From contig NW_027117339.1 of NCBI RefSeq assembly GCF_038025025.1, forward strand, positions 496,001-560,000: DNA of 64,000 nt, in the 5' to 3' direction. Under the pieces are notes generated by a model. It saw only the letters and a program-made list of their open reading frames with translations. It did not search any database and had not been told where the DNA came from. Positions 1 to 52,550 of this stretch are shown here, piece by piece. The translations under genes were made by a program, and so were the position numbers. This DNA comes from Phyllosticta citribraziliensis. Taxonomy: Eukaryota. Every line of letters begins with the position of its first letter. Within the stretch, counting starts at the first letter, position 1.

Positions 1-1835
1 TCCATCTCCCACTTGTCAATCTCGGCAAACTTCTGTGCCACCTTTGTCAGTTCTTGTCCGACATCACCGCCCTCATCACTGTTGTTCCGCCGATCCGCGT
101 CTTGGCCATCGGCGTTCTGATTTTCCTTGTCTGACGATACTCGAGAGCGCCCATACGTCATGCTCGGCCGGCCCGCTCCACGCTGCCTTTGTGCCGCTGC
201 GTCGTTGTTTGCCTTCCCCTTTCGCCTTGTGGAGTCTGCTGGCTGCTTTCCCTTGCCCCTGGCAGTCGATTTGCCTCGTTGACGCGGCGGGGGGTCGTGC
301 AGAAGCTCATCTTCGTCTGAGCTTAGCTCCTGGACTTCGACATTATCCTGGCGATTTGTATTGACATCGTTCGACTCTGAGCTTGGGATTTCAAACGGGT
401 CTTCAGTATTGCCGCGATTTCGTTGGGCTCTACGGCGGCGAGGAAGGAGAGATGCGAGGGCTGAGGTGGTGAGAGCTCGTTGGTTGTTGGATTTGGATTT
501 AGGTTTGGACGATTTGCTTCTTGTTGTGCGCTTGCGAGTGCGGACTGTGGTTTCAATGTCGTTGTCACTGTCTGATGACGAAGAATCCGGATCGTCCTGT
601 GTAGCTTTGACGCGCTGAGGTTGTCTACGAGAGCGACGGTTGGGTATAGCTTCTGGGCGATCTTCAGGATTCTCTCTATGAGATACAGAGCTTGTCGACT
701 TGGGTGGAGCTTGGGTTTCGCTGTAGATTTCCGGCGTTGCTTCCCGGAGAGGTTCGTCTTCGTGGCCGGGGGCTTGTTCCTGGGTATCCGGGACGCGCTC
801 TGGCAGCTCGTCGGGCTCACTGTACAAGTGCTCTGAGCTTGAGTCGCTCTCCATCAGGTAGGTTTGGGACAGCACTGGTGGGGAGGACGCAGGCACCTGA
901 ACCTCAGACGTTTCATTCTGCTCAAAATCCAGCTCTTGGAATTTGCGTTTTCTTGAACTGCCCGTCCTTGCCTCACTGCTCTGTCCCTGGCTCTTCCGGC
1001 TCTTTTGCAAATGAAGCGGTGTGGATTCATGGTCTGGCTCAAAATCTCCGAGGCTGTAGTTGAGCGTGAGGTCCTCCGTGTCATCGTCATCGTTGTCGTT
1101 GTTCTCGACGTCGCTTGTCGCCCCAACCATTCGCAGGATGCTGGGCTGGCGCGGTCTACGCTTGAATTTGGAGAGCGCAAGTACCGAGTTCTCAGCCATT
1201 GGCGTGCCCTGCGCCTTGACCGCGGACGAAGGCACCACTTGGCGTTGTCTACCACGCGGGGGAGAGACTGGCGCGACCGCAGGCGACGATTCTTCGGTCT
1301 GGCCAACTCGCTGGACAGGACCGGGAGCTGGAGATTCCACAGCAACTGAGTCGTCTGTTGACGCGCCACTTGTCCGCTTCTTCTTCCTCGCTGCAAGAGC
1401 AGCAGCGGCGCTAATCGGCGCGCTAGGTTTTTCACCAGTCTTCTTCACTTGCTCCTCTGCCATTCGTCTCTTCAGTGCTTCTAGTGCCTGCGTCTGAGTG
1501 TCGTTGCGCACAACCTTCCTCCCGAGTCTCCCTCTTGGCCGCGCAGGCGCCGGCGTCTTTTGCGCGGGGGGCGATGTCTTATGAGCTGGCGCATACTCTA
1601 TTCCCAACGCGCCTGTCATTGTGAAATCCAACTCCTCCTCCTGACCGCGAGCTGTCCTGCCGTTGCGCGCGGCAGCTCGGACGCGGCGCGCATCACCATC
1701 ACTGGCGCCGTCAATTTGAGCGACGCTATGACGCGCATGAGTGCCAGAGCGCTTGTCGGTGGTGGAAGTCGCGTCAGAAGCAGTTGTGGCGCGCGAGTTG
1801 CGGGTTTGCGCTGCGCGTGTGCGCTTGGGTGGCAT
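1..1835 (-). CDS. Sororin-domain (Sor1-like) cohesion regulator, low-complexity protein; 3' end runs off the window
   Basis: ATG at 1835 (MPPKRTRAAQ...). The same frame gives ENSVLALSKFKRRPRQPSILRMVG and DFEPDHESTPL, and at the window edge ELTKVAQKFAEIDKWEM(D/E), which resembles the Sororin C-terminal motif. The ORF track lists no ORF ending in this frame, consistent with it staying open to the edge. Confidence 0.7.
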   Translation of the reverse strand, partial: MPPKRTRAAQTRNSRATTASDATSTTDKRSGTHARHSVAQIDGASDGDARRVRAAARNGRTARGQEEELDFTMTGALGIEYAPAHKTSPPAQKTPAPARPRGRLGRKVVRNDTQTQALEALKRRMAEEQVKKTGEKPSAPISAAAALAARKKKRTSGASTDDSVAVESPAPGPVQRVGQTEESSPAVAPVSPPRGRQRQVVPSSAVKAQGTPMAENSVLALSKFKRRPRQPSILRMVGATSDVENNDNDDDDTEDLTLNYSLGDFEPDHESTPLHLQKSRKSQGQSSEARTGSSRKRKFQELDFEQNETSEVQVPASSPPVLSQTYLMESDSSSEHLYSEPDELPERVPDTQEQAPGHEDEPLREATPEIYSETQAPPKSTSSVSHRENPEDRPEAIPNRRSRRQPQRVKATQDDPDSSSSDSDNDIETTVRTRKRTTRSKSSKPKSKSNNQRALTTSALASLLPRRRRAQRNRGNTEDPFEIPSSESNDVNTNRQDNVEVQELSSDEDELLHDPPPRQRGKSTARGKGKQPADSTRRKGKANNDAAAQRQRGAGRPSMTYGRSRVSSDKENQNADGQDADRRNNSDEGGDVGQELTKVAQKFAEIDKWEM

Positions 1836-30231: not shown

Positions 30232-31483
30232 GGCTTCGGTGTCGTGCCTTCGGCCTGGCTGGCCGTACGTGTTTGTCGGTCGATCTGTTGTGGACTGTCA
30301 GCATTTTTCTCTCTACTCAAGTCTGGATTCGCCTCTGCATCTCTCTTTTTCTACCACCCTGTGTCATGGATTGAAAGAAACACGGAGCGTTCCTGTGTTG
30401 ACGGGAGGCGGGAGCGAAGGGAGATCTTTGGCGTTCGTTGCGCAGCCTGGCGTCGAATATTGAAGAGTGGAGACGAAAAATGTCGACTTCGCTCTGCGAC
30501 TCAACACCAGGACTGCAAGACCCGAACAGCGGCTTGCTTCAATCGAATTCAAGCTCCCACAGGCTGTTGCAAACTCGGATCAGAGGGTCCTCCTTTCTCG
30601 AGTTGACATGTACAACTCTTTGACTTCTTGTTCCCCAATCTTCTTCACAAACGCGACACTGTCACGCAAACGACGCTAGTACGCGGCACCAATCATTGGA
30701 AACATCTGGTACGCCCGACGTGTCTCCCATCAGTCTCCGGAAAATGCCATTAGGATATCTGCCAGCGTGTTCCATCGATCCATGAGACTGCCATCAGAAC
30801 ATCTGGGAGGCTCCGAAATCTGGAGGTAGATCACCTGGAGCATATCAAGCCAACCAGCGCATGAAGACGTGTACCAGTCGGGTTGGGTGACTCCGGAACT
30901 GGTCATCGGTGCCTTGAAACCAAAGCAGGTCTGGAGTGCAAGAGTGAAGATAGCTCCGCTCAGACCAAGCACGAGGAAGGCTGACATGGACCCTGAAAGC
31001 ACGGATATGGAGCACGGACAAGATCCAACCAGTACATCACAATGGATATTAGGCACGTGTGGCGCGTGCTATTTGGCAAGGCATCTGATTCCGATATCGT
31101 CGACGACAATTGGCTGACAGCTGTCCAGCAGACGCGGGCCAGCTCATGCAAAGTCAGAGGGGGTTCTTTCGGCATGGCCACATGGGCGGGAGGGTGACTG
31201 GAGCAGGCCCGGACGACGGTCAGTCGGCACCGCCGGCGCAAGAGACGGGCACCTACAAAAGCTTCTCTGGAGGCTCGCTGCTCGACCTTTTCTCTCCATC
31301 GGATTCCAAGAGCAAACGATTGTCTCCCTACTGAAAGATCGCTCAACCTTCCAATACACTTCGGATTCCCATCTTCTCTCTACACCCTGCATCTGACTCT
31401 CCCTCCACACCAAACATCTCGCCTCCTACGACACCAGCCTTCTTGGTCACCCTCCTGCTGGGGTCTGCTTCAGCGTGGCGAAA

Positions 31484-33064
31484 ATGTCGAGAACTCACGA
31501 TATTCGAGCTAGCATGAGTGTCCAGCGGATTATCACTGACGACCAAGCGATGTACTTTGCTCAACACCAGGCCATCGGAAAAGCCCCTGAGCGGCAACAG
31601 AGCACTCCACACGCAACCCCTGGCCGCGAAGATTCTCGTCAAGCAAGCTCGCTTCAAGCAGCTCAAGCACTCCTCTCCCTGTCCCAAAGCCCGCAGATTG
31701 AGGATGAGGTTCCTGAGGTGAGCGCCGCCACGGATGTCCTTGCACCAGGTCGTCCATCGCCAATCGACCGACGTCCCGTGGCCTCCCCATCGACAGATCA
31801 TGTCCGTGCGCAGGGTCGTTCACTTCTCTTTGACCTACCTGTTGCAAACTTTCCATCGCCCATCGACCAAGGTCCTGTAGCCTCGCCATCGACAGATCAT
31901 GTCCGTGCGCAAGGCCATTCACCTCTTGTCGACCTACCTCCTGCAAACTTTCCATCGACACGCCATGCCCCTGTGCAAGCACGCTCATCTTCCATCGACT
32001 TGCCGACCACCCGCTTTACATCGATGAACCACAGGCCTGCGCAAGCGCGCTCGTTCTCCACCAACCTACGGACCACGGGCTTTACATCGACAAACCACGG
32101 CTTAGTGCAAGCACGCTCACAGTCTACTGGCCTACCACGCATGAATCAGCCATCGACCGACGATGCCCATGTGCTAGGCAGCTCCAATGGGCTTCCTGTC
32201 ATCAGGCCTAACCGGATGCCCGTTGGCAGAGGAAATGGCAGAGCCAGACCAACAGGCATCAGCAAGCGAAAGCCCCCGGTCAAGAAGCCAAAGCCGGATC
32301 CCATGGACTACATTACCGCCGGCACACCTCAAACTCGCGAATTCGAATGCACCTACGGCAACCCCTGCATGCTCGGCCAGTACACACTCAACCTGTCGCG
32401 CAAGATGGTGTCGGACTACTTCGGGCGCAACAAGAAGGCGACGGCCATGATCGAGGGCAAGTGGATCATGTCGTGCCGCAAGCACTACCAGCGCCTGTCG
32501 TATCAAGAGAGCTGGCCGTTCACCAAGGCCGACATCGTGCAATCTCAGCTCTTCGAGATTGACCAAATCGAGCCCAACATGACGTGGGAGATCAAGCTCA
32601 AGAACAGCGAGGAGAAGCGCCTCACGGATTACCTCCACGATTGCTCCCAGAACGGCTCTGCCCCTGTCTGGACCTCGCCCGTCGCCACATTCATTCCCGA
32701 CGGCACCAACGGGAAGAAGCAATCGTCGCTTGCCGTGCTGCATTCGCTCCACAGCTTCTGCGGAAAGTCCAAGACTACCCAGGATTGCAGAGACATCATC
32801 GCGGCGGCCACGGCGGCGCTCCACTCGGGCAAAGCCGTCCAGTTTCCCCTCTTTGAAATGATTCCGCAGTTCACGAGCCTGGCCAAGAGGAAGAGGTCCG
32901 CTTCTTCTGCGTCTGGAAACGAGAACGAGGGCACGGGCAGGCCTCACAAGAGGTCCAGGTCGTCGGACGAGGAGGACGACTTTGTGGAGGCGGATGGCCA
33001 CGAGGATGACAGCGAGGATGAGGACTTTGTCATGGAGGATGTGGAGAGCGAGTCGGAGGCTTGA
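31484..33064 (+). CDS. Uncharacterised ascomycete protein with a conserved Cys/His domain (family usually annotated 'ORP1-like'), internal tandem repeats and acidic tail
   Basis: CTYGNPC...RKMVSDYFGRNKKAT...WIMSCRKHYQR; NLS-like KRKR; D/E-rich tail. First ATG at 31484. Confidence 0.7.
   Translation: MSRTHDIRASMSVQRIITDDQAMYFAQHQAIGKAPERQQSTPHATPGREDSRQASSLQAAQALLSLSQSPQIEDEVPEVSAATDVLAPGRPSPIDRRPVASPSTDHVRAQGRSLLFDLPVANFPSPIDQGPVASPSTDHVRAQGHSPLVDLPPANFPSTRHAPVQARSSSIDLPTTRFTSMNHRPAQARSFSTNLRTTGFTSTNHGLVQARSQSTGLPRMNQPSTDDAHVLGSSNGLPVIRPNRMPVGRGNGRARPTGISKRKPPVKKPKPDPMDYITAGTPQTREFECTYGNPCMLGQYTLNLSRKMVSDYFGRNKKATAMIEGKWIMSCRKHYQRLSYQESWPFTKADIVQSQLFEIDQIEPNMTWEIKLKNSEEKRLTDYLHDCSQNGSAPVWTSPVATFIPDGTNGKKQSSLAVLHSLHSFCGKSKTTQDCRDIIAAATAALHSGKAVQFPLFEMIPQFTSLAKRKRSASSASGNENEGTGRPHKRSRSSDEEDDFVEADGHEDDSEDEDFVMEDVESESEA
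31754..32160 (+). repeat. Coding tandem repeat: 2 x 99 bp followed by about 3 degenerate ~66-bp units
   Basis: PSPIDRRPVASPSTDHVRAQGRSLLFDLPVANF / PSPIDQGPVASPSTDHVRAQGHSPLVDLPPANF, then H.PVQARS.S..L.T..FTS.N units. Confidence 0.85.
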
Positions 33065-34518: not shown

Positions 34519-34789
34519 GTATGCAGCGTGAAAGCGGAAGTGAAGGCGGGCGGCGGGGCGCGGCGGCTGGCAAAGTCATTCGGTGCTGGGTGGGTGGGTG
34601 GTCAAAAAATGCTGGTTGCGGTGTTGAGGCGTTGGCGCAACTGCGTGGTTTGCAGGGCATGAGGTCGTTTGTCGCCCTTGCCGATTCTTTTTTTGCAAAA
34701 AAATAAGGAAGTCCGTGGGTTGGGTGGTGGTGCTCGCGCCCGGACTCGACCACGCGCTCAAATAATTATTGAGTTGGGAGGTTCGGCAC

Positions 34790-34923
34790 AAAAAAAGATA
34801 TCATTAAGATATTAGTGGGTTGTTCGAGCCTCTTAGAACCTAACCTCTGTTCCCATAGACCAGTGGATGTGCAATTGGTCGGGTCCGATAACGTCCTCGG
34901 TCGGGTTCCAGGTCGAAGATTAG
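34790..34923 (-). ncRNA. Structured small RNA family 1, copy 1 (TATA / T7 / downstream B-box-like motif)
   Basis: 102-nt core (34822-34923) matches 36752-36853 at 98 of 102 positions; terminal stem and four-way junction; T7 run at 34790-34796. Confidence 0.65.
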
Positions 34924-34938
34924 GATGAACTTTTGGCC

Positions 34939-34945
34939 TTATATA
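34939..34945 (-). promoter_or_regulatory. TATA box (TATATAA) of family 1 copy 1
   Basis: Begins 25 nt before ATCTTCGACC; same spacing in copy 2 although the spacer sequence differs. Confidence 0.65.
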
Positions 34946-36715
34946 TTGACTGTTCTTCGTACTTTTTCACAAGAGGAGGCATGAAACGTTTCATACCGCC
35001 GACACTCGCCCAATGGCCCGCACGGCATCACAAAGCAACAAGACTGTCGCAGCCATTTCTTCGTGCTGCTGTGGATCAAACCGCTTGAGGTCTTTCGTGA
35101 AAATGACAACCCGCACCAACACCCCAGATAATCAAGATTTGCAGGATCGTGTCTCTGAGCCTACGCGTCTGCAGTGGAGTCTGGGTAATTTAATTCGTCA
35201 AGGAGCACATTCTCTGCAAGTACTTTTCCTTGCCCGGCCCTCTATGGGCGCGACACCTGCAAAACAGCCTTCCCATCCCTTATCTTCCATTTCCATAATA
35301 TTAGGTGCCAACAAAGATCAGCCTCTGGCGCGCGAATCGATGCCTGATTAAAATTCTGAATGTCCTTTGAAAAGACTTTGAGCAGCGTGCACTCTGCTAC
35401 TGTAACTCCTGTAGTCAATCACTGCTCTGTTGGGTCCATTTGGAATTGAGGACCCGCTTTTACACCCCCTGTAGAGAAACGTAGGTAGTAAAGGCCAGTA
35501 CGTGCCGTGGACGCCTATCTGTATATATGGGCGGCGTCCGCACTGAAGGAAGACAACCCGTGGACTCATCTCTCAGTTTCCTTAGTATCTGGGCCCAACA
35601 ACACTCGCTAAGATACACCAGGGCCATAGGCGCTTGCAGCTTCCAAGGTTGCTCTGTTTGGAGCAAGGCGCATATCTCTGTCGTGCGAGACCTTTCTGAG
35701 CAGCTGTTTTGCAGTCCGTGTACGTGGAGCAGTCAGGCACAAGTACTCTCGTTTGCTTTGTCCCACCATAGATGATCCTGCACCCATTTTCGGCTGTACC
35801 TGCGACCGTCATAGGCGTGAATCTCCCGCCAAATGTTTGTCTCGAGAGCTTCGCCGCTCGACATGGCGAAGTGACGCGTCATTGCCGCCTGCAAGTGTCT
35901 TGCGGAGAAGGCAGTCCGGGCGAGGAGACGCCATGCAAAATCGGCCCCTCAGCCATAGTTTGAATCGTTCCTCGCAGGGCTGCCAACTTCCTTCCGAAAT
36001 TTGAGGTTCTTGTGCGCAGCCTCCAACTTCGCGCGGCTGTCATGCGATGCCGCCTTCGCGCCATACCGCCCATGCTGATAAGTAGACCTGGCCATTATGA
36101 TGTGAGTGAGGTATGAATGCTCCATCCATCTTCTCCACAAACACAATTCTTTACGTGATGCTGGGCGTCGTTGTGGGGGAAGTCTAGAGTGGCGGCGGCG
36201 ACAGCAGTATCAGTGGCGTGGTTGACGGCGGTGATGGCTCGACGGGGGACTCATTGTGAGCCTTGAATGACTGGAAAAATTGGGCGACTTTTATTTGTGA
36301 GGGTGAGAGCGAGAGATGGTTCGAGGGAGAGTTGTTTGCGCAGTGGAGGTCAACATGGTTGAGGTGAATGGTCAAGGTGCGCGAGCACTAACAAAATGCC
36401 GGCATTCTAAGATATCGTAAGCAGTGAATGACAAGATAATGTCAGTAAGAGGAGAGAGGGTGTTAAAATAGAGGCTGGGGTGTCAAAAAAGGTCGCCGCC
36501 GTACTAAGCGCAAGAATGAAATCAGCGTTGCTTTGCTGGGCATGAGTGCAATGACACCGCCCGGCAAAGTTCTTACAACCTGACATGGCGCCGCCGCCGA
36601 CATTGCCAAGCAAAAGTTTGTTGCGGGCGCGACGTTTCTTTTTTGCAAAAGTGATTGTTGCCAACACTGGGACTCGACCGCGAGCTCAAAGGATTACTGA
36701 GTTGGGAAGTTCGGC

Positions 36716-36853
36716 AAAAAAATATCCTTAAGATAAGGATTGTATAAGTGGGTTCGAGCCTCTTGGAACCTAACCTCTGTTCCCATAGACCAGTGGGCGT
36801 GCAATTGGTCGGGCCCGATAACGTCCTCGGTCGGGTTCCAGGTCGAAGATTAG
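36716..36853 (-). ncRNA. Structured small RNA family 1, copy 2
   Basis: Core 36752-36853; T7 run 36716-36722; GGTCGAGTCC B-box-like motif at 36670-36679. Confidence 0.65.
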
Positions 36854-36868
36854 ATCAAAGTTTCCACA

Positions 36869-36875
36869 TTATATA
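36869..36875 (-). promoter_or_regulatory. TATA box (TATATAA) of family 1 copy 2
   Basis: Same 25-nt spacing to the core as in copy 1. Confidence 0.65.
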
Positions 36876-37374
36876 TTGCCATTTTTCCTTGACCCGGACA
36901 CTGCAAGCCGCGCTCTACTGCCCCAGCCACTTTCTAAACATGAGGACATTATGAGTTGGTTGACCTACTCACCCTAACACGTGTACAGCCAGCTTCTGGA
37001 AAAGGCGGCCCCTGGGCCCCCGACATCCAATATTTACCTTGCTTGTCTTACCTGTGGCCGGATTCAGCATTGTTAGAAGAGCAATCATGTTGAAGATGCG
37101 CTTTCGCAACAAGGGAGTGCATTCCAAGACTTTGATGATGGTGGGAGTACCAGATGACATGAATGCTCCCAATGCGCCCACAACACCACACCACACGCAC
37201 AACGAACGAACGAACGCACCACAACGGCAACCCCCACAGTCCATGTTCAAAGGCGAAGGAAATGCCCCAGCGGAAAGTAGACAATAGAGTCGCTTGAGGG
37301 AGCAGACCCTAATAGGCTTGCTGTGCCGGTCCTTTTTTCACGAATACTGAACCACTTGAGTGACTTGATCTTAT

Positions 37375-37641
37375 TGACGAAGTAAGATGAGAGAACTGAA
37401 GACTCTATTTGAGGCTACTCTGAGAGCTATCTATATACTGCTGAAACTGCCAGGGGGAGTAGTAGCTGGTACTAACTGCTGATGAGTCCTGAACTTGTTG
37501 AGATATATAAAGCTAATAGATAAGTGTATCTTGACTAAAGTAGTAAGTTGTTGTCTGGATAAGCTGTAGTTATCTAGGTGAACTGTAGCTAAGATGATGC
37601 GATGGGAGACTGCTTAGTATTATTATATAGGACTACTAATA
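37375..37641. repeat. LTR (3' LTR of the minus-strand element)
   Basis: Direct repeat of 42297-42563; differences seen are transitions. Confidence 0.95.
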
Positions 37642-40600
37642 TACCCCCTAGGATGAGAAAAGAGATAGTTATAGTAGAGTAGATATATAAGTAGTTATAT
37701 TAACTAAATAGAAAACTTACTATATTAGTCTATACCTAATAAGGTTATAAAAGTAGTGGTACTTAACTATTATTAATACTTTAGTAAGCCTATCTATAAT
37801 CATCTTATTAGTAGAGATATAAGAGATGGTTATAGTTCTATCTATAACTACCTACTTAATATACTAGTAGTATAGATTAATATGTTTTATAGTAGTATTA
37901 AACTCTATACTATTAGTAAATTAGATGGTATTCTTATTATTATTATAGAGCTAGATTAGTTAAGTATTAGGGCCCTTATAACCTATTTTAGTAAGAACTT
38001 AAGTCATCTAGATGGCTTATTTAATAGTAGGAGTAAGGTTAATAAACTTAGCTTCTATTATAGATATACTAATAAGCTTCTATCTCCTACTCTTTATATA
38101 TAGTAAACTACCTAAAGCTATAATAATATAGCCTAATAAGGACTAATAAGTATCTAGATTATTAGTAAAAGTAGTATCTATATAGATTTATAAGCTAAGA
38201 GTGCCATTATTACTAGGGTATAGAATGATTCTATAATTATATATACCCTATAAGTATTAAAGGACTTAGTAAGTAGCAGTAAGGTGTTTATTTAATAGGT
38301 TATAGGTATATTATAAGAGATGAGTAGTAGGGAAAAGAATAGCTAGATAGCATCTTATTATATACTATATAAGTAAGCTAATAATCTTATTATAAAGCTA
38401 TTAATAGTCTAGGTTATTCTTACTATTATACACGCGTAATTTATAGGAATCTATTAGTATAAGGACGCGTATAGCATTACTTATACTAAACTATATAAGA
38501 ATATTTTAAATATATCTACCTTAGGATAGTATAATTATGCCGTTTATATATTAATTAATATAAAGACTAAGGAAGTAATATAGTCAGCCTATATCTTTAA
38601 AGTAGATCTTAGTATTAAGTAGTAAGATAATTTTATTAACTTTAGACTTAGTTTTAGTAGTAATATAGAGATTATTAATATAGATAAGGATAAATATAAG
38701 CTTATCCTAGTATCTTATAATATAGGGTTCTAAAGGGAGAGAGTAGAAACCTAGGTAGTATAAGAAATTATAGAGGCACTAAAACTAAGTAAGTAGTAAC
38801 TAGTATAAGCTATATAAGGCTCTTTAGAGACGCTAAACTTATTATAGGACCTAGTATCTAGGAGGTATATAGGTATAGACTAGGTCTTTTAGTAGTATAT
38901 TAAGGAAGGCTGTCTTAATATCCCCTTACTTATAAAATAGGTAATAATAGATGTTGATTACTAAAAATAGTATAAAAGTAGGAAATATAATAACTAGTAA
39001 TAATACTTTAGATATATTAAATCCCTTATATTAAAGATTACCTAAAACTATAATATAGCTCTTATAGACAACCTTCTTACCTAGCTTATTAAGCTTATAG
39101 ACCTAGACCTATTATAGTAGCAGTACCTAAGAGCTATCTAATAGGTAGTTAGTCTCTTTAAAGGTACTAGTATTAGTTAACTCCTATATCTACTTATCTA
39201 TAGAGGGTCTCTAATAGATAGATTTTAGCCCTATAAGGGCCTTATACTATAAGTAAGGTAGAACCTTATTAGTAGGGATAGTATCTTATTAGTAATAAGT
39301 AGTATTTTCTATAGTAGTAAAGGTGCGTATATAGTAAGTAGATAGTTAAGGAGGTTAAGTATTATCTAAACTATATTTCTTATTAAAGAATTATATCTTA
39401 GTGCAAATCTACTAAGGGTATTATAATAGTACTATTAGTAGTAGAGTAGATATAGGTAATAGAGATAGTAAGGGTAGTAGTAGGGTTAAAGTTAGGTTAG
39501 TAAGTACTAAATTATTAGATCTAGTATATTTATTAGCTAGAGAGATATTAATCTAATCTATTTTATCTACTAATAGTATAATATCTATAAATACATCCTC
39601 CTTACCTCTACTACTAATATCTATACTACCTATATTAGACCTCTCTACTACTTTAATTACTTATTCTGCTATATTATAGATTACTTTAGTATTACCTTTA
39701 AGAGCATCTTAAACTATTTTTAATATAAGATATATAATAAGCATCTTATTATTACTATTCTTAACTTTTCTATCTTCTATATTATTTATAGTAGCTATTA
39801 AGTCTAGCTACTAAGGAGGTCTAAAATATATATTCTAAGTATAGATAACCTAGTTTATTTAAGGGAGATATACCTAGAAGATATACTTATAGTTATAGCT
39901 AATAAACTATTCTTTCTCTACTCTTATATTAAATTTAGTGCTCTTAAGACGCTTCTCAGCTAGGATATAAGTATATATAGTAATACTAAAGACTAGTACT
40001 AGTAACTAGATATCCTTATACCTACTAATAGTATCATTAAAAATGTTAACTAGTATCTTGCTATTAAGTATATAAGTAGGAAGATAGTTAAGAAGATATA
40101 CTATATATTAATAGGCTTCTATCTATAATAATTAAGGCATATTTAACGCGATACTTATAGAGCGGGCTATACTAGTAATAAGGTATATAGATAACTTACT
40201 AATACTATTTTACTTAGGTAAGTATAGTGCCGTCTTTTTAACCTTAATACCCTCTATCTTTACCTATACTAGCAGCTTTTAGCCACTAAACTCTATACTA
40301 TTATCTATTTAGAGGGCTTAGATCTTATATTAAAACTAGGTTTTAGTCTATTTACTAAAGTTTTAAATACTATTAAAGGCGTCGCCCTTAGTCTTTATAA
40401 CTAATAAGTATTATAGATATAAGTAGTTATCTATAAATACCACCCCTTAATAGTAGCTATTATAGCTAACTATAAGTAGTCTAAATATATTAATATAGAT
40501 GCGTCTAAAGGGCGCGTCTACTTAAGGTATTAGTTTATATAATACCATCTAGTAGGACTTAGCTATATAGCAGGATTTATAATAGAAGTCTTAGTTACTA

Positions 40601-42296
40601 GTAATAATAAGTTATCCCTAGTACTAGAGCTTATTAAGCATGCTAGTATAGACATGCCCTAATTACTAGTACTATATCTTATATATTACTATAGGAGGAG
40701 TTACTATAGTAAATACTTATACTATATAATTATTATTAATAACTATTAGAATATTTACCCCTAAACTATTAGGGTAAGCTATAATAGCTATTCTATAGTT
40801 TTATATTTATAATATAGAGGTAAGCTAATCTAGGTATAGTCCCTTCTACTTAAGTTTTAAAGCTGAGATAAGACTAACTATTAGTACTAGAATATATAGA
40901 ATACCCTTTATTATGAGAGTGTTAACTATACTATTTATAGGATAGTAGAGTATAGTATTACTATAGCTAATAGCTATTACTATACCTAAACTGCGTACCT
41001 AGACTAGCTGTATAAACTATAAGTAGTTTATTAGCTTAGTTAAATTTAGTATATAGTAGGTATTAGCCCTAGTATTAATAATCTATTTATCCTTTATTAA
41101 AGCTAGATATAGGTATAGGGTAGTAAAGTAGTTTATACCTTATACTAGAGGGTTAGTTATTAATATTATTATTACTATTACTACTATTAGCAGTTTAGAG
41201 ACTTAATTATCTAGTATATAGAATACCCCTAATACTAGCTTCTAATAGGTAGGATAGTATTTAAGGTAAAGATAGCTATACTTAGTCTTAATATACCCCT
41301 TCTTTCTATAGTAATTATAGGTGGTATAGTTAGACTTAGACTGCTTAGTAGACTACTAACTAGTATAAATAGTAAGAGCTATAGTATTATTCTTACTAGT
41401 ATATTTAATCTTATTAGTTATAGTATAGAAGAGATCCTTAAACTTAGGTATCTCCTTCTTATTATACTAATTTATATATTAAGTTATATACTAGATAGGA
41501 ATATTATCCTATAAGTTTTCTAGGAGTAGAATATAGAGAATCTAGTCCTTAATTTACTATTAGATATAGCTAATATAGGCTTACCTTTATTTATATAGGG
41601 TATTATAGAATTCCTTTACTATTATAAAATTACTATATTAATAGAAGATAAAGTCCTTAATAATATTAGCCTTAGAGAGGATACCCTTAGTATTATATAT
41701 ATTATAAAGCTTCTACTATATAGAGTAAGCTAAACTAGTATACCCCTATAGTACTATTATAATAGGAAGTATAATAATTATTATAAACTAGTAGATAATA
41801 TATATATCCTTCTTATAATTAGTAGTATTTTTTAGCTTATCTTTAAGTAGATAGGTATAATAGAATAGACTAAGCCTTATCTTAACTATTATCTTAAAGG
41901 TTACCTAGTTAGTAGGGCCTTTAAGTGGCTAGATATTCTTTAAAGGGATACTAAACTTATTATTATTTATAATTAGGTCTACCTCTTCTTTAGCCTTAGC
42001 CTACTTAGCTAGTATAGAAGATGAGGTGGTGGTAAAGCCTAAACTACTAGATAATAAGGGAGGAAGGGAAGGTAAAGTTATAGTAAAGATAATAACTATT
42101 AGTATATTACTTAGAGTTATAGAGATAGATAATACTAATAAATTTACTAAAGAGTAGGAATTGTATAAGATAATAAGGGATAAAATAATAAAATAATAAA
42201 ATAACTATTAGTAATAATTGTATAGATAGTATTATAGTGTAATACTAAAATAAGCTAGATAAGTAATTTGTGTGTATAATGTGAGGGCTTATAACC

Positions 42297-42563
42297 TAAT
42301 AAAGTAAGATGAGAGAACTGAAGACTCTATTTAAGGCTACTTTAAGAGCTATCTATATACTGCTAAAACTGCTAGGGGGAGTAGTAGCTGGTGCTAACTG
42401 CTAATGAGTCCTAAACTTGTTAAGATGTGTGAAGCTGATAGATAAGTATATCTTGACTGAAGTAGTGAGTTGTTGTCTGGATAAGCTGTAGTTGTCTAGG
42501 CGAACTGTAGCTGAGATGATGCGATAGGAGACTGCTTGGTGTTGTTATATAGGACTACTAACA
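42297..42563. repeat. LTR (5' LTR of the minus-strand element)
   Basis: Direct repeat of 37375-37641; adjacent to the PBS. Confidence 0.95.
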
Positions 42564-45161: not shown

Positions 45162-46918
45162 GCTTGGGGAGCGTTCGTGGTGTGATTGCATGGGTTGGGA
45201 GATTTCGTGGAGCTGCGACCAGGGCACGTTCGACATGTGTCGCAAAGGTCGGAAAAGGTGGTGGAGCTGAGCTCGGAGAACGTCAAAAATGTGGTTCGAT
45301 TGGATGAGCGGGTTGAACGAGGTGGAGAGTGGACAAAGCCCGACATGTGGTACGATTCGTCGACTGGGTTGGAAGGAGTGGTCCTGGATCGCGAGGACAG
45401 AGACTTGTAAATCTCTTGTGTTTTGGCTCGCAAGGATGAAGATCATGGGAGGGAAGGAAAAAAACGGGCGTAGATGCCAGGTCCTCGACGGAAAAAGACT
45501 CTGGTAGCTAGAAAGAAGCATACAAGACTTGGTGCTCCTCAAAGATGGCTGCAGGTACGGAACGAGAAGCATCCAAAATCTACTGACAAGAAAAACTCTG
45601 GTTGTAGTCCCGACACACTTACCCCCGGCGACAAATCTGTCTGCTTCTCCCACGCGTCAGGCGGTTGACGCTCCACGGTGTCGAAGCAGCAGCGGCGCTG
45701 CTACCCTACTGCCAACGGCAATCCCCAACCACTGCACACGACTGCCGATCATCTTCCGAAGCCTCAATTCCTTCATCCGATCGTTCTGAAAGAAAGGTCG
45801 AGCGAATTCCGCGCCAGCACAACACCGACCGTCGTCTTTTCACCTTTGTTCTCCTCCAAAAGCGCGCAAGCAGCCCGTCAAAAGACACAGCAGCCCACGT
45901 ATTTCGACAAACAAATGTCCAGCAACCTCCAGAACAATGACAAAGAAAGAGAACAATGCTCAGCCCAAACTGCCGCGGTTTGCGCTCGAAAGCGAAAGGT
46001 TTCGCAGCGAGTGAGGTGCAAATTGAGTTGTCGCCCCGCCCGCCGATCGCGACGGTAAGCCTGATGCAGAAAGGTGGGCCGGCGGACCCGCCAATGATTC
46101 GCGTGGCTCGGGTGAGCTAGCCGCGAGCGGTAATATCGTGGGCAGGGGTGCGACTACCTGCAACACCAAGCTGACGAGATGGTGTACTGCGCGTGGTTTG
46201 GGAGGAGCGTGATGGTTGAGAGAGCGAGAAGCGGAAAACACCATTATTGGGCAGGGTGGGAGTGCAAAAAGCGCAACATTTGGAGGACGAAAGGTAGAAG
46301 CGTACAAAGCGACATGCAGGACGACGGCGGTCAAAACCTTGACGCTGACATTCATTGCATTAGGCTGGAGACGCCATTTTCACTGCATTTCGCCTTTTGA
46401 AAGATGCCGCGGAATCTCCCCTGGGTCGGCCAGCACGGCGAATACGAACTTTTGCTGCAGCTCGCTCTGGCTGTTGATGTCGCGTGGGAAACACTCGTCG
46501 CAAGACTGAAACAATTTTATCGCGCGACAGAACGCATGCAAGGGAGCCAAATGAGTTTTCCAAGTTCAAATCATGGTCGCGGCGATGCATAGTGTTTTTC
46601 TGGCCACCGCTGTCGTCACCAGCGCAGCTACGCAGCCTATGGCTTTTGGCTTTCATTGGCTGGGGCACTGTTGCGAAAATGGGGGCGATGGAGGTAAGAA
46701 AGCCTCTTACCTTGTTATTAATGTGGCGAAACGAAGCATCCGAACTGCCTGGCGAGAATGTAATTTGCGGTTGCTGAAGTCGTGACGCTGCTTTGTCGCC
46801 TTTGTCGAACAACATCGCGGGCGACAGTACACAAACCGAGTGACGGGAGTGGCCTTCAGTCTCATGAGGCAAAAAAAGTAAAGTCGACGAATCTGGGGAA
46901 AGGAAAAAATACGGAGAC

Positions 46919-47095
46919 AAAAGAATTGGTGCCTGCACACCTTGCTGTGCTAAACGAGGGGTAGATATATTGCAGTATCCCAGACTCGAACCTTCAAACT
47001 ACGGCCTACACGTCGGCATCTCACGCCAGGCGCAGATATTCAGTTCTTGATAATATGTGCAGCAACCCACCTGACGCATACGCCTTGGGTGCAAT
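46919..47095 (-). ncRNA. tRNA-like Pol III RNA family 2, copy A
   Basis: B box GGTTCGAG at 46985-46992; D-arm-like hairpin; conserved 3' block at 46927-46952; T runs downstream. Confidence 0.65.
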
Positions 47096-47379
47096 TCGAG
47101 TGTTTCATGGGGTTCTGCCCGTTGATTATGTTTTTAATACTTTCTGGTCACGACGCCGTCGCCGGATGTTGCAATGTAACCTTCTTACCACAACAACACA
47201 CGAGTGGAGACTCCATCACTGCCATCAATTGACTTGGACTTTCTTTGTCAATTGACAGCACAATTCAGTAAAAAGTGTTCGCCGACGGGTGTCAGAGGAA
47301 GTGGGCCAAATGGCAAACATTTCAGCGACTGGAATGTCGGGTGAATGAGGAGCAGGCGCAATACTAAGAATTCAAAGGG

Positions 47380-47545
47380 AAAATGATACCTACACACCAT
47401 GCTGTGCTAGAACGAGGCTACCGCCATCGCCACCGGCAAAGCTCGAACCGTAAACCCACTGCCTATATGCAGCCTATATGCCAGTATCAAACACTAGGCG
47501 CAGAAATAAGTTCTTGATAACGCGTCAAGCAACCCACCTGACATG
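47380..47545 (-). ncRNA. tRNA-like Pol III RNA family 2, copy B (5' end diverged)
   Basis: B box at 47442-47449; 3' block at 47384-47409; compensatory GATAC/GTATC pairing; short internal tandem duplication of GCCTATATGC. Confidence 0.6.
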
Positions 47546-49735
47546 AACTCGTTTTGGTCTTCGGGATTTTCACTACCGAATCATGACCGCCTGCCTCGCT
47601 GATTCAACACTCGCAATGTGGGCTTTTTGGACAGTGGTCCGGAATTCGGTGAAATTGCTCAGACCCCGGCGCCTGCGCCTATCCCAACTAGTGATCCTCT
47701 ATCCAATCGCCTTATGCATCCCATTTTTCGTTCGCTTTTCACGCCGCTTGCCCGCTTTCCCGGATTGCTGACTGCAATCCCCAACATCATCTCTCGCATT
47801 CAGACGTGTGCAAGAGCTTGATCTCGAATTAATCCAGCACTGCACCAGAGAGCCGCTAGCCCCAAGGACGAAAGGCAGAAATAATCGACTATAAGGGAAG
47901 AAAAGGTCTTTACTAACTCCGAGACTCTCCGCCGGTCGCGCACCCGGTCGCGCCGCCATGCATCAGACGTGATGAACAGAGAGAAAGAATTCCGAGAAGC
48001 CGAAATTGAGTATACGAGCAGCGGATGGATGTGTCAACAAAGGTGAGTCGAACGCCGGCCCAGTTGCTGGACTGAACTTAGCGATTGGAAGCGACTCAGG
48101 GACCGACCCAAACACCGATCAGTCATTCTCACATCCCTGTTTGCTCGGTACATCCTTCGGAATGTTTTTCAGTCACCTGCTCGTCGCGCTGTGCTGAGAA
48201 TGCTTCTCATCCCGCGGCCTTCGGCGTTTCGTGCTCAGATCAATGTCCAACAGGCAAAATCCACGCAGAAAGATAGACTCCAAGACGCGGTAGTTTGGAC
48301 ATGCTGACAGATGATTCAAGCCAGACACGCTGTGCAAGTGGCCGGAGAACCTACTGAACAATGCATTGAGCGAGCTTTGGACAACGCGCCGAACAGGACG
48401 TGACGGAAGATGTCCGAAAGAGAAGTGCGAGCCAGAAATTCGGCCGTGATATCTGTTGGCGACGTAGACGCTTGTACATTTGCGTTTGTGTCTGCTTTCG
48501 ATTCTTCAAAGGGTGAAAAATGTCTCCAAAATCGCTGCTGAGAGCCTTCGAGCCGGCCCTCACGCAAAATCTTAGCAAGCCGATCAGCAGGCTTCTCTAG
48601 GCCAAAGGGGACCTTTGACTCCAAGATAAACCAGAGACACTCTGATCTTGCTGTAAATTGAAAGAAAGAATCAAAAGTCAGCGCGGCCATCAATGATGAA
48701 GAGTCTCGCAAACTCTAGGGCGCGCGAGCGGGCAGTTTCGGGTAGCGCCTGTCACCACCAAGAGTTGAATCGATTCGGTGATTCTCATGCTCATAGAATG
48801 GCTCAGGCCTTCCCAAGTCCGGAGTGGGTGCCCAAAATAATTGAAAATTGCGATGTGCAGGCGGTGGTTGGGGTCGTCACGTATTTTTAATCTCTCCGCC
48901 GGCGGTACCACCACGTATTAAACAAAGCAAAAAGAGTGACTACGATTCCAAGACCTGCAGGATGAGCGACTGAGCGGTCAATCTATCTGTTGGCTCATTG
49001 CGTGTATTTTGTCGCGCGTTCCGGCACTTTGTGCTCAGATCATCGCCCAACGAGCGAAATTCTACGGGGAGAGAAGGACTCAACGGCAACGCGGTTTGTT
49101 CAAGGTGCTGGAAGACACTGTGAGCAAGACGCAGTGGGCGAAATGTGGCAAGACATGCTGGGCAAGCGGCAAACAGACTTACCGGACGACGCGCTGAACG
49201 ACATCTTTGAGAAAGCGATGAGCAAAACGTGCTGGACGAAGAGTTGGTGGTACGTAATGGAGTGTCAGTAGCCTAGCTGCACTACCTGCTCGCTCGGATG
49301 TCTGCACAGTTACCAGTCACGATCGTGTCTGCGGGAGTGGTCGAAGGTAATCGCAAACATCAGCGTTGAGCGCTGTCGAGGCAAACATCCACCTCCAGTT
49401 CAGAAAACTGAGCAGGAGGCTTCTCCAACGTAGGCGGGACCTCTAAAGTAAAGAAAAATCAGAAGGCACCTGATCTGGCCAGCGATGAGGAAGATGAGAG
49501 AACAATCTGGGCAGCAAACAGAGATGACGAATCTGGAAGACTATGAGGCCCTCAAGCGGGCCAATGTATTTCGGGCGGTCCTTGTTTGCTTGTCACCTTC
49601 TTGAGCTGAGTCAAGCAGATGTTTCGCTAATCCACAGTGGGTTTGGAGTGCTGAGTGTAACTATCTGATGGGCTTTGTGGTTCGGAAGAAAAGATGCGCA
49701 GCGATGATCGCAACGGCGGCAGGAAATCAGCGGAC

Positions 49736-49921
49736 AAAAAAGTAAAAGGTGATGCCTACACACCATGCTGTGCTAGACAGGAACAGTTTATTGCAGCAAA
49801 CCAGACTCGAACCTTCAACCTGCTTATAACGACCTATACGTCAGCATCTTACGCTAGGCGCAGGTTGAGTTCTTGAAAATGTGTCAATTAACCCACTTGA
49901 CACATACGCCATGGGCGCAAT
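49736..49921 (-). ncRNA. tRNA-like Pol III RNA family 2, copy C
   Basis: A box TGGCGTATGTG; B box at 49806-49813; 3' block at 49750-49775; T4 and T6 terminators. Confidence 0.7.
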
Positions 49922-51152
49922 TTGGATTATGGTTAGAAATTCAGCTGCTTAATTCAATTATGGAGTAGAAATTCGGCAAAGTGGCCTTGGCGACGGCGGT
50001 CTCCATCGCCGGTCTGGCCAGAAGATTTACGCTCGCGAATTTGCATGATCTGGGTAAGTAGACTCATTATTTTCATCTAATCCACTGCCCTAGCATGGCG
50101 GTGCGCCATCTAGAGCTTTGCATGGCGGCCTCAAATCTGGCCCGCGATGCGAAGCGTCTGTGAAACACCGCATTTGCTCAATGAGTCGTCCTGAATATCT
50201 CTCAACCATTTGATTCCCGTCTCTTGATCTACGTGTTTGTCTTGCCGCGTCTCTGGACGCTTCGAGCATAGGTCGTCGACCAACGAGCGAGAGCGACTGG
50301 GGGATTCACTCGACTATGCGAAGAGCTTGCCGTGCTCTGAGAAGTAGTGGGCAAGACGTAGTGAGTGAGATGCGGCAAAATGAGGCCAAAGCTACCAAGA
50401 AATGCTTTCAGCAACGCGTTTAACGCCACGTTGGACGCCGCACTGAGCAAGGTGTGCTGGACGAGAGCCTGATGGAGGACACCTGTACGCGGCTCGCTTC
50501 CAGTGTTGGTGACGTCAGTGGTGGCTGCCAGGGTCTAGGTATGCCCGTGAGAAGTAGTTTTGACGCGTCTTTGCGCTCGTCCTCTCCCACACTACACAAC
50601 GATCACGGTTTTTTATCTTCCTCAGAGCTTGACAGAAAAGGAAGAGTCTGTGATATGGGTGCACTTTCTGCTGACTTGGATTTATTTCAGTTACTTGCGC
50701 ATCTGCTTGAGTGGCTGAAAGCCATTTTCAACGTTGCTGTTGGGCGCTGCGGTCGAGTAAGCCCCTCCCGCAAAGGTTCAGCGATTTGATCAGCATAAAA
50801 TTTGCTCCAAAATTAGCGCAACCTCCAAACCCAAGATTCGTCCAAGAACAGCCCAATTTGCAAGTAGTAAGGAAGAACTTGAGAAAATTGAAGCCGCGAG
50901 GAAATGAGCCATTGAACAAACGTCAGGGCGCTCGGGAGGGTGAATGTTTTCCAGGCGCTGCTTGTCGCCACCAAGAGAAATTCCAGGCAGGTTTTTCGCT
51001 AGATCACAGGCTGCATTTGTCGCGCCTGGTGGTGACAGATTCGAGCGGCAAAACGAAGACCAAAGATGATCAAAGCTGAGGGGTGGTGATTAGAATAAAA
51101 AGTAGATAGGGCTGGGCAAGCCTCATTAGTAAAACACAAAATTCAAAGACTC

Positions 51153-51347
51153 AAAAAAGACAAAAGTGATGCCTCCACACCATGCTGTGCTATACGGGGA
51201 GTAAGAGTCCATTGCTGCCTACGAAGCTCGAACCGGGAACCTGCTTATAATAGAGGCCTATATGCCGACATCAAGCACTAGGCGCAGATACTGAGTCCTT
51301 GATAATGCGTCAAGCAACCCGCCCGACACATACGCTAAGGGAGCAAC
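51153..51347 (-). ncRNA. tRNA-like Pol III RNA family 2, copy D
   Basis: A box TAGCGTATGTG; B box at 51227-51234; 3' block at 51167-51192; T4 and T6 terminators. Confidence 0.7.
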
Positions 51348-52550
51348 TGTCATTACTTCAGCGCTCGCTCAAATAGCACATAACTTGAAGCAAATGCGCC
51401 TGGGCCAAGCGCAGAGAGATGAATTACCGCCAATACCTGTACTCCTCCCCGATGATTGACAAGTCATAAGAGCAGACGAGAAGTCGGAACACGAAGCCGC
51501 ATTATTTCTCCACATCAATCCGTGTCAACTTCCATGACCTTACAGCTTCTTCTTTCGTTACCTAAAAGTAAAGTACTTTGAAGAATCTTAAATTCTACTC
51601 TACTACGCCAGCCCTCGGAAAAGGTTGCATCATGCGATGTAGAGCAAACGGACCTGGCAGCTTCAACCTGTAATTTGGTCTCATGAGATGCAGTATTTTT
51701 AGCGTTTCCTCTAGATTTGGAGCCCTTGATTGAGCTGTGGTGCTGTAAACTATGTTCATCTCCCCATCAAGACGAGCGCCTCGCGGCCCTTGCCACTCGC
51801 ATTGATTCACGTTGGAAACCCAAAAGCCGAAGGATATTCTGAACGCCCTGTTCTGCCCATGCGTAGATCCAAACTTTCGAAATTCGAATTTTGGATGGAC
51901 ACGACGTTCAAGTTGGAAGTGTTAATTTTGACAATGGCACCGAGCGCCCGATGGCCTCAATATCTCTAGTCATACGCGCAACCGTTGAGTAGAGGGTGCC
52001 CAATCGCAGTGCTGATCTGCCTTATTTTCATCTGCCTTAGACCAGAGACTGCGAAACGTAGATATGATCGCATCGTCCGACTCCCTCTGACGACGGTCCT
52101 TCCAACCACAACACTCCTTCCGACCACAATACTCCCTCTACCGCCGACACACCTTTTGCCGCCAAATCACCCTCGATTACGATTTGACGAAAATTCCTTC
52201 TGCGTCGCGACTCTACCCTCCACCGTGTCGTCTCCAGAGCTTTGCGCGGTCTTGCCTGGTCGTCCCGTCAACACCACCTCTCGCTACTTTCCTTCGACGT
52301 GCAGCACTTTCACTCGACCCGCCTCAACTTCTCTAAGTCGTGTTCTATTTCCCTTGCCGGCGCAACACCCACCCTGCGTCAAGACTTCGGCGAGGTTTCT
52401 TCGCCCAATCCTCCTTCATACGACTTTACTTGTTGTCGACGTTTCGCGCCCGCCGGTTTGCGCTCTGACGGATCTACGCACCAGCAACCGCCGCCGCTCG
52501 GCCCTTTACATGTTGATGAGCCTTGGTCAGCCATCAACCTCGGCAGTCTC

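Follow-up and report, generated by a model that had tools for sequence, protein, structure and literature searches.

A Clustered Family of Four Probable Structured RNAs with Pol III-Type Signals and a Plausible Loop-to-Tail Pseudoknot in Phyllosticta citribraziliensis

In the fungus Phyllosticta citribraziliensis, a short segment of one contig carries four diverged copies of a unit that, judging from its sequence conservation, is probably a real and new family of strand-specific structured RNAs. The segment at 47384–47500, for which an earlier reading had predicted a pairing between a hairpin loop and the 3′ end, is best explained as copy B of this four-gene tandem family. The units are most likely a family of small Pol III transcripts. 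For the loop-to-tail pairing itself, a pseudoknot is plausible: it is sterically and energetically reasonable, and it accounts for two changes found in copy B. The whole explanation, i.e., a family of four structured RNAs transcribed by Pol III, in which a tail-loop pseudoknot aids termination at a T4 run, is put forward tentatively, as somewhat short of probable. The DNA analysed, here called the window, is the 64-kb stretch at positions 496,001–560,000 of contig NW_027117339.1 (assembly GCF_038025025.1), and all coordinates are those of the window.

The Four-Copy Family

The segment at 47384–47500 makes sense only when read as the minus strand. On that strand, a 28-nt hairpin (47499–47472) is followed by GTATCA (47389–47384) and then by TTTT (47383–47380). 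Four units of this kind, each ~170–180 nt long and all on the minus strand, are found in the window, and their coordinates are collected in Table 1 with those of their parts. Repeat finding had picked up the units as families D4, D6, D9, D10, and D11. A blastn self-comparison of 46001–52500 gave six HSPs at E < 1e-3, every one of them unit-to-unit, with 70–77% identity over 72–195 nt; no similarity between the unit flanks was found in the same comparison. A nhmmer profile of the four units matched the 64-kb window four times (E ≤ 1.7e-53), and the next best match had an E value of 6.3.

The copies are well diverged. Pairwise identity is 66.5–79.0% over columns 9–187 of the alignment, i.e., a divergence of 21–33%, and 89 of the 161 ungapped columns are invariant. 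Two subtypes can be told apart, I (copies A and C) and II (copies B and D), which alternate along the chromosome in the order I, II, I, II. The four copies are confined to 4.5 kb and have the same orientation. The single 4.5-kb stretch, the one orientation, and the alternating order fit tandem gene duplication better than insertion. Copy B has the highest private transition rate: B-only transitions are found at 7 of the 60 G/C columns where the other three copies agree.

The units sit in a gap of ~5.4 kb without convincing ORFs, and the stop-to-stop ORFs in 47600–51150 are all short. A coding reading of the units was rejected, as the ORFs are short and the indels between copies are not multiples of three.

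Table 1. Coordinates of the units and their predicted parts. Columns refer to alignment A2; positions are those of the window.
Feature	Columns	Positions	Strand	Remarks
Unit, copy A		46927–47092	minus	blastn self-comparison; nhmmer E 1.5e-53
Unit, copy B	9–187	47384–47558	minus	holds the flagged pairing; blastn self-comparison; nhmmer E 1.7e-53
Unit, copy C		49750–49918	minus	best-folding copy; blastn self-comparison; nhmmer E 5.2e-55
Unit, copy D		51167–51344	minus	blastn self-comparison; nhmmer E 1.1e-57
P1 (predicted)	9–19 with 127–137	copy B 47549–47558 (5′ strand) with 47432–47442	minus	3′ strand just past the B-box-like word; 29/35 cells paired; 4/9 pairs double-changed; copy B alignment uncertain here
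P2 (predicted), upstream hairpin	22–32 with 38–48	copy B 47520–47546	minus	5′ strand and loop carry the A-box-like word; 38/44 cells paired; 1 double-changed pair
P3 (predicted)	55–59 with 120–124		minus	GAACU with GGUUC of the B-box-like word; RNAalifold
P4 (predicted)	64–69 with 110–115		minus	RNAalifold
P5 (predicted), central hairpin	70–78 with 88–97	copy B 47472–47499	minus	9 bp, one bulged A, 9-nt loop 47482–47490; 36/36 cells paired
3′ hairpin (predicted)	164–179	copy B 47392–47407	minus	GCACA/UGUGU, nearly invariant; 19/20 cells paired; 4/5 pairs never vary
B-box-like word GGTTCGAG		copy B 47442–47449	minus	invariant 4/4; first five bases form the P3 3′ strand, last base opens the P1 3′ strand
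T4 run, putative Pol III terminator		A 46919–46922; B 47380–47383; C 49744–49747; D 51162–51165	minus	same alignment position 4/4
T6 run, putative back-up		A 46904–46909; C 49736–49741; D 51153–51158	minus	none in B
Loop strand of proposed pseudoknot, copy B	80–86	47483–47489	minus	
Tail strand of proposed pseudoknot, copy B	181–187	47384–47390	minus	ends 0–1 nt before the T4 run
Loop/tail words, copy A				GATGCC / GGCACC; one A.C mismatch
Loop/tail words, copy B				(T)GATAC / GTATC(A); 6-nt forms GATACT / GGTATC
Loop/tail words, copy C				GATGCT / GGCATC
Loop/tail words, copy D				(T)GATGTC / GGCATC(A)
11-nt tandem duplication of the P5 end, copy B only		47461–47471	minus	in the P5/P4 internal loop; direct reading of sequence

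The unit did not resemble known families. Rfam gave no match in the whole window at gathering score. At E ≤ 10, no model, those of tRNA and ribozymes included, matched the units (46800–51500 searched), and the only matches were two at chance level to snoRNAs, located off the units (50021–50075 and 48286–48335). Ribozyme activity, which had been suggested earlier, is thus unsupported. A tRNA identity was rejected, as ARAGORN found zero tRNA genes in the window and the Rfam tRNA model was without a match at E ≤ 10.

The scans for homologues outside the window covered metagenome, prokaryote-genome, and viral contigs. A 24-base pattern had no matches in metagenome contigs. A 17-mer was present at no fewer than 115 loci in metagenome contigs, but when compared by blastn or nhmmer, none of the matches listed reached beyond a span of 22–49 positions at the seed word. 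A 19-base pattern had five chance-level matches in bacterial genomes and none in viral contigs. The literature searches turned up nothing that matches the unit, and the invariant 15–17-mers were not found in papers. As far as the accessible part of PMC5640933 goes, its 15 fungal motifs do not include the unit by name or description.

Predicted Fold of the Unit

The consensus-fold tests were done with alignment A2 of the four paralogues from one locus, and the fold was derived and scored on the same alignment. RNAalifold gave a nested fold of the four copies with helixes P1–P5 and a 3′ hairpin. The best explanation of the alignment is that each unit folds as a 5′ three-way junction, in which P1 is the predicted closing helix, P2 a hairpin, and P3-P4-P5 a long arm. 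A variable linker of ~25 nt lies between this 5′ domain and the 3′ hairpin, after which come a tail segment of 6–7 nt and the T4 run. The 17-mer of the 3′ hairpin occurs four times in the window, where 0.6 occurrences are expected.

The fold is specific to one strand. The minus-strand consensus has an MFE of −36.44 kcal/mol, versus −20.70 ± 3.50 kcal/mol for alifoldz-type, class-preserving column shuffles (z −4.50; 0/300 shuffles). The plus-strand consensus energy is −12.89, versus −12.72 in shuffles (z −0.05; 137/300), and a plus-strand RNA was rejected on this ground. The helixes tolerate G.U, with 35 G.U cells versus 4 A.C cells. When the helixes are taken together with the pseudoknot, there are eight double-changed pairs, versus 3.9 ± 1.4 in shuffles (2/500). 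Two of the eight are in P5 (columns 76 and 90, CG in two copies and UA in two; columns 78 and 88, UA, CG, and UG). For the same structure, pairing holds in 92.1% of 203 cells, and the covariation score of 0.301 compares with 0.226 in shuffles (0/500), both being measures that relatedness may inflate. Structures slid by one to three columns are 30–40% paired, although any structure is apt to outperform slid ones on the sequences from which it was obtained.

The consensus signal is strongest in the 5′ domain (columns 9–137), with a z of −4.98 and none of 300 shuffles at or below the real value. By the same count, columns 63–137 give z −2.64 (2/300), columns 9–62 alone z −2.38 (4/300), and columns 63–187 z −2.25 (10/300). 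The local consensus fold of the 3′ part, columns 138–187, is not significant (z −1.60; 21/300). The single-sequence MFEs of the whole units have z values of +0.42 (A), +0.56 (B), −2.03 (C), and +0.91 (D). As these are no better than shuffles except for copy C, the consensus-fold result should be read with caution. For the 5′ domain of copy C, the single-sequence z is −2.9. The four 110–125-nt cores gave +0.46 to +1.51, which does not support stability.

Pol III-Type Signals and a Proposed Role in Termination

The B-box consensus, GGTTCGANNCC, lies inside the transcribed region of type 2 (internal-promoter) Pol III genes. Each unit has a B-box-like word, which is followed by TCT in copies A and C and by CTT in copies B and D. 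The looser pattern GGTTCGANNY is found six times in the window, versus 4.2 expected; four of the six are in the copies. Thus, this pattern is not rare by itself. The A-box consensus is TRGCNNAGTGG, placed 10–20 nt after the start and 30–60 nt before the B-box. A candidate A-box-like word, TGTGTCAGGTGG, lies in P2 (columns 23–34). It is imperfect, is degenerate in copy D, and precedes the B-box-like word by ~95 nt, which is long. A second, poorer A-box-like candidate lies in P5.

The 3′ ends of the units are marked by T-runs. The T4 run starts 1 nt after the tail strand in copy B, 2 nt after it in D, 3 nt in C, and 5 nt in A, and the T6 run follows the T4 run by 2 nt in C and D and by 9 nt in A. 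A Pol III unit whose weak primary terminator is backed up by a stronger one would be laid out in this way. For yeast Pol III, the part of PMC9278858 available to us describes T4 tracts as essentially non-functional in vitro, and states that additional T-tracts are usually nearby. It further states that RNA structure adjoining a T4 makes it a moderately efficient terminator, an effect also ascribed to the acceptor stem of tRNA (PMC9278858). Based on these statements, we propose that a helix formed by the tail, be it the pseudoknot or a local hairpin, may aid termination and shield the 3′ end.

The events may be pictured as follows. Pol III would transcribe each unit from its internal box elements. 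An H-type pseudoknot would then form between the tail segment and the apical loop of P5, and the pseudoknot would stack on the 3′ hairpin, so that the 3′ domain is folded back onto the long arm. The loop-tail helix would take the role of the tRNA acceptor stem, as double-stranded RNA located 0–5 nt from the weak T4. Its formation would help the polymerase to release, and in the mature RNA the 3′ end would be tucked away. What the sequences themselves show is the four copies, their conserved and strand-specific secondary structure, and the loop-tail complementarity with its one double change. From the alignment and its signals we infer transcription, the polymerase, the RNA ends, the pseudoknot, and the role of the pseudoknot.

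The Proposed Loop-to-Tail Pairing

The observations on which the original prediction was built are all present in the alignment. The central hairpin (GCCTAGYGY / RCRTATAGG) is found on the minus strand in all four copies and is fully paired. Each of the quoted loop and tail words is found in its copy on the minus strand. The double change in copy B is likewise there: a pair that is G-C in copies A, C, and D is A-U in B, and the two strands are 100 nt apart.

Columns 81–86 pair with columns 181–186 in 23 of 24 cells, with one double-changed pair, two pairs that are C-G or U-G, and one broken cell. That is, complementarity of loop and tail is kept in 4/4 copies, with the one A.C mismatch in copy A. 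A seventh pair, U-A, is possible in copies B and D. The calculated energies of the cognate loop-tail duplexes are −6.4 (A), −7.4 (B), −8.5 (C), and −9.2 kcal/mol (D), whereas the copy B loop paired with the other three tails gives 0 to −2.6 kcal/mol. Thus, the double change makes the copy B loop specific for its own tail. Loop columns 84–86 vary solely by transitions that keep the pairing, while the unpaired columns 79–80 vary by transversions; the GAU core of the loop is invariant.

The proposed helix would also be feasible in space. The deep groove of a helix of 6–7 bp can be crossed by 1–2 nt, and by this steric rule the loop lengths fit canonical H-type pseudoknot geometry. The topology is like that of H-type pseudoknots, with the 9 bp of P5, 1–2 nt, a second helix of 6–7 bp, 1 nt, and a long third loop. 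It differs in that the third loop, a connector of ~90 nt, contains whole domains, and in that the helix is known here from one double change in four sequences.

How often would such a helix arise by chance? All 6-bp antiparallel column stacks within columns 9–190 were scanned for those with at least 23 of 24 cells paired and at least one double change. Three registers passed in the real alignment, representing two distinct helixes, one of which is the proposed loop-tail helix. The other, columns 23/24–29 with 86–92, is incompatible with the better-supported hairpins P2 and P5, and so is taken to be spurious or an alternative fold. When all columns were shuffled, the mean was 0.58 such helixes per alignment; one or more were found in 32% of 60 trials and three or more in 7%. 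In a null specific to the loop, in which P5 was fixed and the other columns were shuffled, an equally good partner was found in 9/300 cases (3%). The copy B changes in loop and tail are both transitions, and they are in the fastest-evolving copy. Rough arithmetic from the private rates gives a probability near 0.1 that one or another of the helix's four G-C pairs underwent a double transition by chance. With this chance, and with B the fastest-changing copy, the support is nominal and not decisive. The double change had been called the signature of a functional RNA helix, which is too strong for one double transition in four paralogues at a look-elsewhere rate of 32%; the accompanying caveat, that there is one covarying pair in four sequences, agrees with these statistics. 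To summarize, the loop-tail helix has nominal support: a single event underlies it, a local structure competes with it, and it fails a look-elsewhere correction. If the RNA is real, the chances of the pseudoknot appear to be close to even.

The local rival keeps the RNA family and its 5′ domain but does without the pseudoknot. The tail would instead form a local structure by the terminator, and the transitions of copy B would be coincidental. We regard this as possible, though a good deal less than probable. Two forms can be drawn, as follows. In the first, a hairpin of columns 172–177 with 182–187 would abut the T-run, much like an intrinsic terminator. This hairpin, too, is paired in 23/24 cells. 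It turns the copy A mismatch into a G-C pair (a change from G.U to G-C), and it keeps the C-to-U change of copy B as G.U. Its calculated energies are −7.1 in A and −5.2 kcal/mol in both C and D. In copy B, however, the C-to-U change weakens it to −0.3 kcal/mol, i.e., it is nearly unstable, and it would disrupt the invariant GCACA/UGUGU hairpin. In the second form, the 3′ hairpin is extended (columns 159–168 with 175–183). The extension, columns 159–162 with 180–183, competes for the same bases as the pseudoknot and is paired in 13/16 cells. The extended hairpin is predicted by RNAalifold and by the single-sequence MFE in A (−8.9) and C (−9.4 kcal/mol), but the extension is weak in D (−2.3) and is broken in B at columns 159–183. 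Both forms gain from the fact that local helixes are a priori likelier than a tertiary helix at a range of 100 nt, and from the look-elsewhere rate given above. Against both, the 3′ part lacks a significant consensus fold, and neither explains the pairing-compatible transitions of loop columns 84–86 or the invariant GAU core.

Other Readings of the Units

The units might also stem from a low-copy, tRNA-related, SINE-like Pol III retroposon, either as old copies now in decay or as duplicates of one such copy, without present function. The structure they appear to have would then come from a structured master RNA, with subtypes I and II going back to two source genes. A fungal model is AfuSINE2 of Aspergillus fumigatus. 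In the part of PMC5063351 at hand, it is described as low-copy and tRNA-related, 140–493 bp long, with degenerate A and B boxes and no copy folding into a cloverleaf. Its tRNA-unrelated body ends at an oligo-T, and its copies are dispersed and have target-site duplications of 4–14 bp (PMC5063351). By this partial description, the units match AfuSINE2 in size, in their degenerate A- and B-box-like words, in the terminal oligo-T, in low copy number, and in having no cloverleaf; unlike it, they are clustered in one orientation, are without duplications or an A-rich tail, and have a conserved RNA structure.

A SINE-like origin also draws on the observations that only copy C folds better than its shuffles and that further repeats, along with an AT-rich element between LTRs, are present in the region. 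The flanks do not bear it out. When the 45 nt upstream were compared with the 60 nt downstream, the two sides of A, B, and C had no words of at least 6 nt in common, and copy D has just two 6-mers, which are out of register, although old duplications could have decayed. At the 3′ end, the T-runs come directly after the conserved segment, and neither an A-rich tail nor a repeat tail is present. The clustering, the one orientation, and the I, II, I, II order are unlike insertion, and neither ARAGORN nor Rfam at E ≤ 10 showed a likeness to tRNA. Copies that are 21–33% divergent yet have 92% of cells paired, eight double changes, and a z of −4.5 are not expected from neutral decay. A typical SINE insertion was rejected for the lack of target-site duplications and of an A-rich tail and for the clustering of co-oriented copies, and we consider decaying SINE-like copies unlikely.

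Equally doubtful is a transcript of ~120 nt starting from near CTGCGCC (column 63), with the 55–65 nt upstream acting as promoter DNA; the pseudoknot question would be unaffected by it. The promoter would consist of a palindromic factor site and a TATA-like TTATCAAG ~25 nt before the start, as in Pol III genes that depend on upstream elements. Such a start puts the B-box-like word ~55 nt into the transcript, which is the usual B-box spacing of tRNA genes. In addition, TTATCAAG(A/G)ACT is nearly invariant, and the P2 stem is a near-perfect inverted repeat, like the sites of dimeric factors. Nonetheless, P2 has nine G.U cells, each of them a mismatch if the palindrome acted as DNA, and P1 joins columns 9–19 to the segment past the B-box with four double-changed pairs. 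Columns 9–62 are part of the conserved RNA structure: P2 alone has a z of −2.38 (4/300), and the z of the 5′ domain is −4.98 versus −2.25 for columns 63–187. Because the 65 nt upstream of P5 belong to the fold, an RNA of ~170–180 nt starting near column 9 is favored over a 120-nt RNA with an upstream promoter. The ~120-nt frame of the original prediction is therefore probably too short, as these 65 nt join conserved helixes.

That the units are not small RNAs at all, but a repeated cis-acting DNA element (an enhancer, an insulator, or an extra TFIIIC site) or a segment of some long Pol II transcript, would suit their location between two divergently oriented ORFs but is very improbable given the strand asymmetry of the fold (z −4.50 versus −0.05), the tolerance of G.U in the helixes (35 G.U versus 4 A.C cells), and the T-runs at a conserved position on the same strand as the fold.

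Comparison with Known Systems

Vault RNAs, Y RNAs, and the viral VA and EBER RNAs are small Pol III RNAs with internal box promoters and tandem clusters of paralogues. These families are not known to occur in filamentous fungi. The units resemble them in falling in the 100–200 nt class, in having a B-box-like element and diverged neighboring paralogues, and in what would be an oligo-T right after a helix that holds the 3′ end. With VA RNA they would also share a tertiary pairing, which in VA RNA is in the central domain. They differ in that the units lack Rfam similarity and are known here from their sequence. They also differ in the partner of the 3′ end, which in the known RNAs is the 5′ end, the two forming a terminal stem, and in the units is proposed to be a hairpin loop.

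The likeness to tRNA genes is of a different kind. GGTTCGAG resembles the T-loop/B-box, a D-arm-like hairpin carries the A-box-like word, P1 would link the 5′ end with the bases just past the B-box as the acceptor stem does, and a strand predicted to form a helix lies directly before the T4. In contrast to tRNA genes, the units have no cloverleaf or T-stem, their boxes are ~95 nt apart, and a 50-nt 3′ domain follows P1.

We know of few small Pol III RNAs described from filamentous fungi beyond the tRNAs and the 5S, U6, SRP, and RNase P RNAs. A more far-reaching proposal, which we think improbable but offer as a speculation, is that the units are a new class of fungal Pol III ncRNAs, with four genes of two alternating subtypes. 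In this class, the pseudoknot would replace the terminal stem between the 5′ and 3′ ends and would act co-transcriptionally at a weak T4, as a long-range "intrinsic terminator" helix. Each paralogue would have its own loop-tail code, as is suggested by the private G-C to A-U change of copy B.

What the family means depends on the reading. Four diverged copies of a conserved, strand-specific RNA with several helixes would add a new RNA family for characterization. If the loop-tail helix is real, the units would offer a natural test of RNA structure aiding Pol III termination at a short T-tract, as far as this is set out in the available part of PMC9278858, with a long-range tertiary pairing, and not a local stem, as the source of that structure. 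If the units are decaying SINE-like copies, the finding is an ordinary one.

Genomic Surroundings

The stretch of four units is bordered by two divergently oriented ORFs. A search for Pfam families in the four ORFs flanking the cluster found none. The genes of the window include an MRC1-like gene and those of a bleomycin-hydrolase-like peptidase C1, galactose-1-phosphate uridylyltransferase, a Na/H exchanger, and adenylosuccinate synthetase. With these ordinary eukaryotic genes, the window looks like part of a fungal nuclear chromosome. An AT-rich element of 26% GC, flanked by LTRs, is located at 37380–42561 and is bounded by direct repeats of 260 nt; other repeats are found in the region as well.

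A possible pairing and a duplication within the RNA units

For the 5′ strand of P2, the upstream hairpin of the four RNA units, the central hairpin P5 offers a second possible pairing partner, made up of bases at the edge of its loop and in its 3′ strand (columns 23–29 with 86–92 of A2, the four-unit alignment). In this additional helix, 23 of 24 cells are paired, and at most two pairs are changed on both sides among the four units. Either the helix is a chance match, which would show the weakness of covariation counted in four sequences, or it is an alternative conformation. Among the four units, only copy B carries an 11-nt tandem duplication, which makes the internal loop separating P5 from helix P4 larger but leaves both helices intact.

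Features within and around the RNA cluster
Feature	Position	Remarks
Possible P2–P5 helix	49898–49904 with 49837–49843	copy C example
Tandem duplication, 11 nt	47461–47471	copy B; repeats 3′ end of P5
Family 1 repeated block, ~200 nt	48210–48420, 49010–49220, 50240–50450	3 copies
ATG-initiated open frame	from 46815 downward	minus strand
AT-rich element	37380–42561	26% GC; flanked by 260-nt direct repeats
Direct repeats bounding AT-rich element	37380–37639, 42302–42561	91% alike
Direct repeat, ~190 nt	34762–34955, 36692–36885	just upstream of AT-rich element
Tandem repeats, units 99 and 66 nt	31753–32185	within open frame 31397–33064

Neighboring repeats and genes

The family 1 copies, which are interspersed with the RNA units, are 52–62% alike (n = 3, window), and their indel lengths are not multiples of three. 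RNAalifold, run on both strands, gives no sign of a strand-specific fold, as the energies are similar on either strand (−23.0 versus −27.7).

The open frame at 46815 shares its strand with copy A and starts ~100 nt beyond the downstream end of that unit, which places the RNA cluster within the sequence upstream of a minus-strand gene. The frame likely contains a GT...AG intron, and the gene matches no Pfam family. Nor does the 555-codon open frame that holds the tandem repeats.

The AT-rich element looks like an LTR retroelement decayed through RIP-type C-to-T mutation. The two copies of the ~190-nt direct repeat, spaced 1.93 kb apart, are roughly 85–90% identical; both contain GTTCGAGCC, of which the second copy has a longer form, GGTTCGAGCC.
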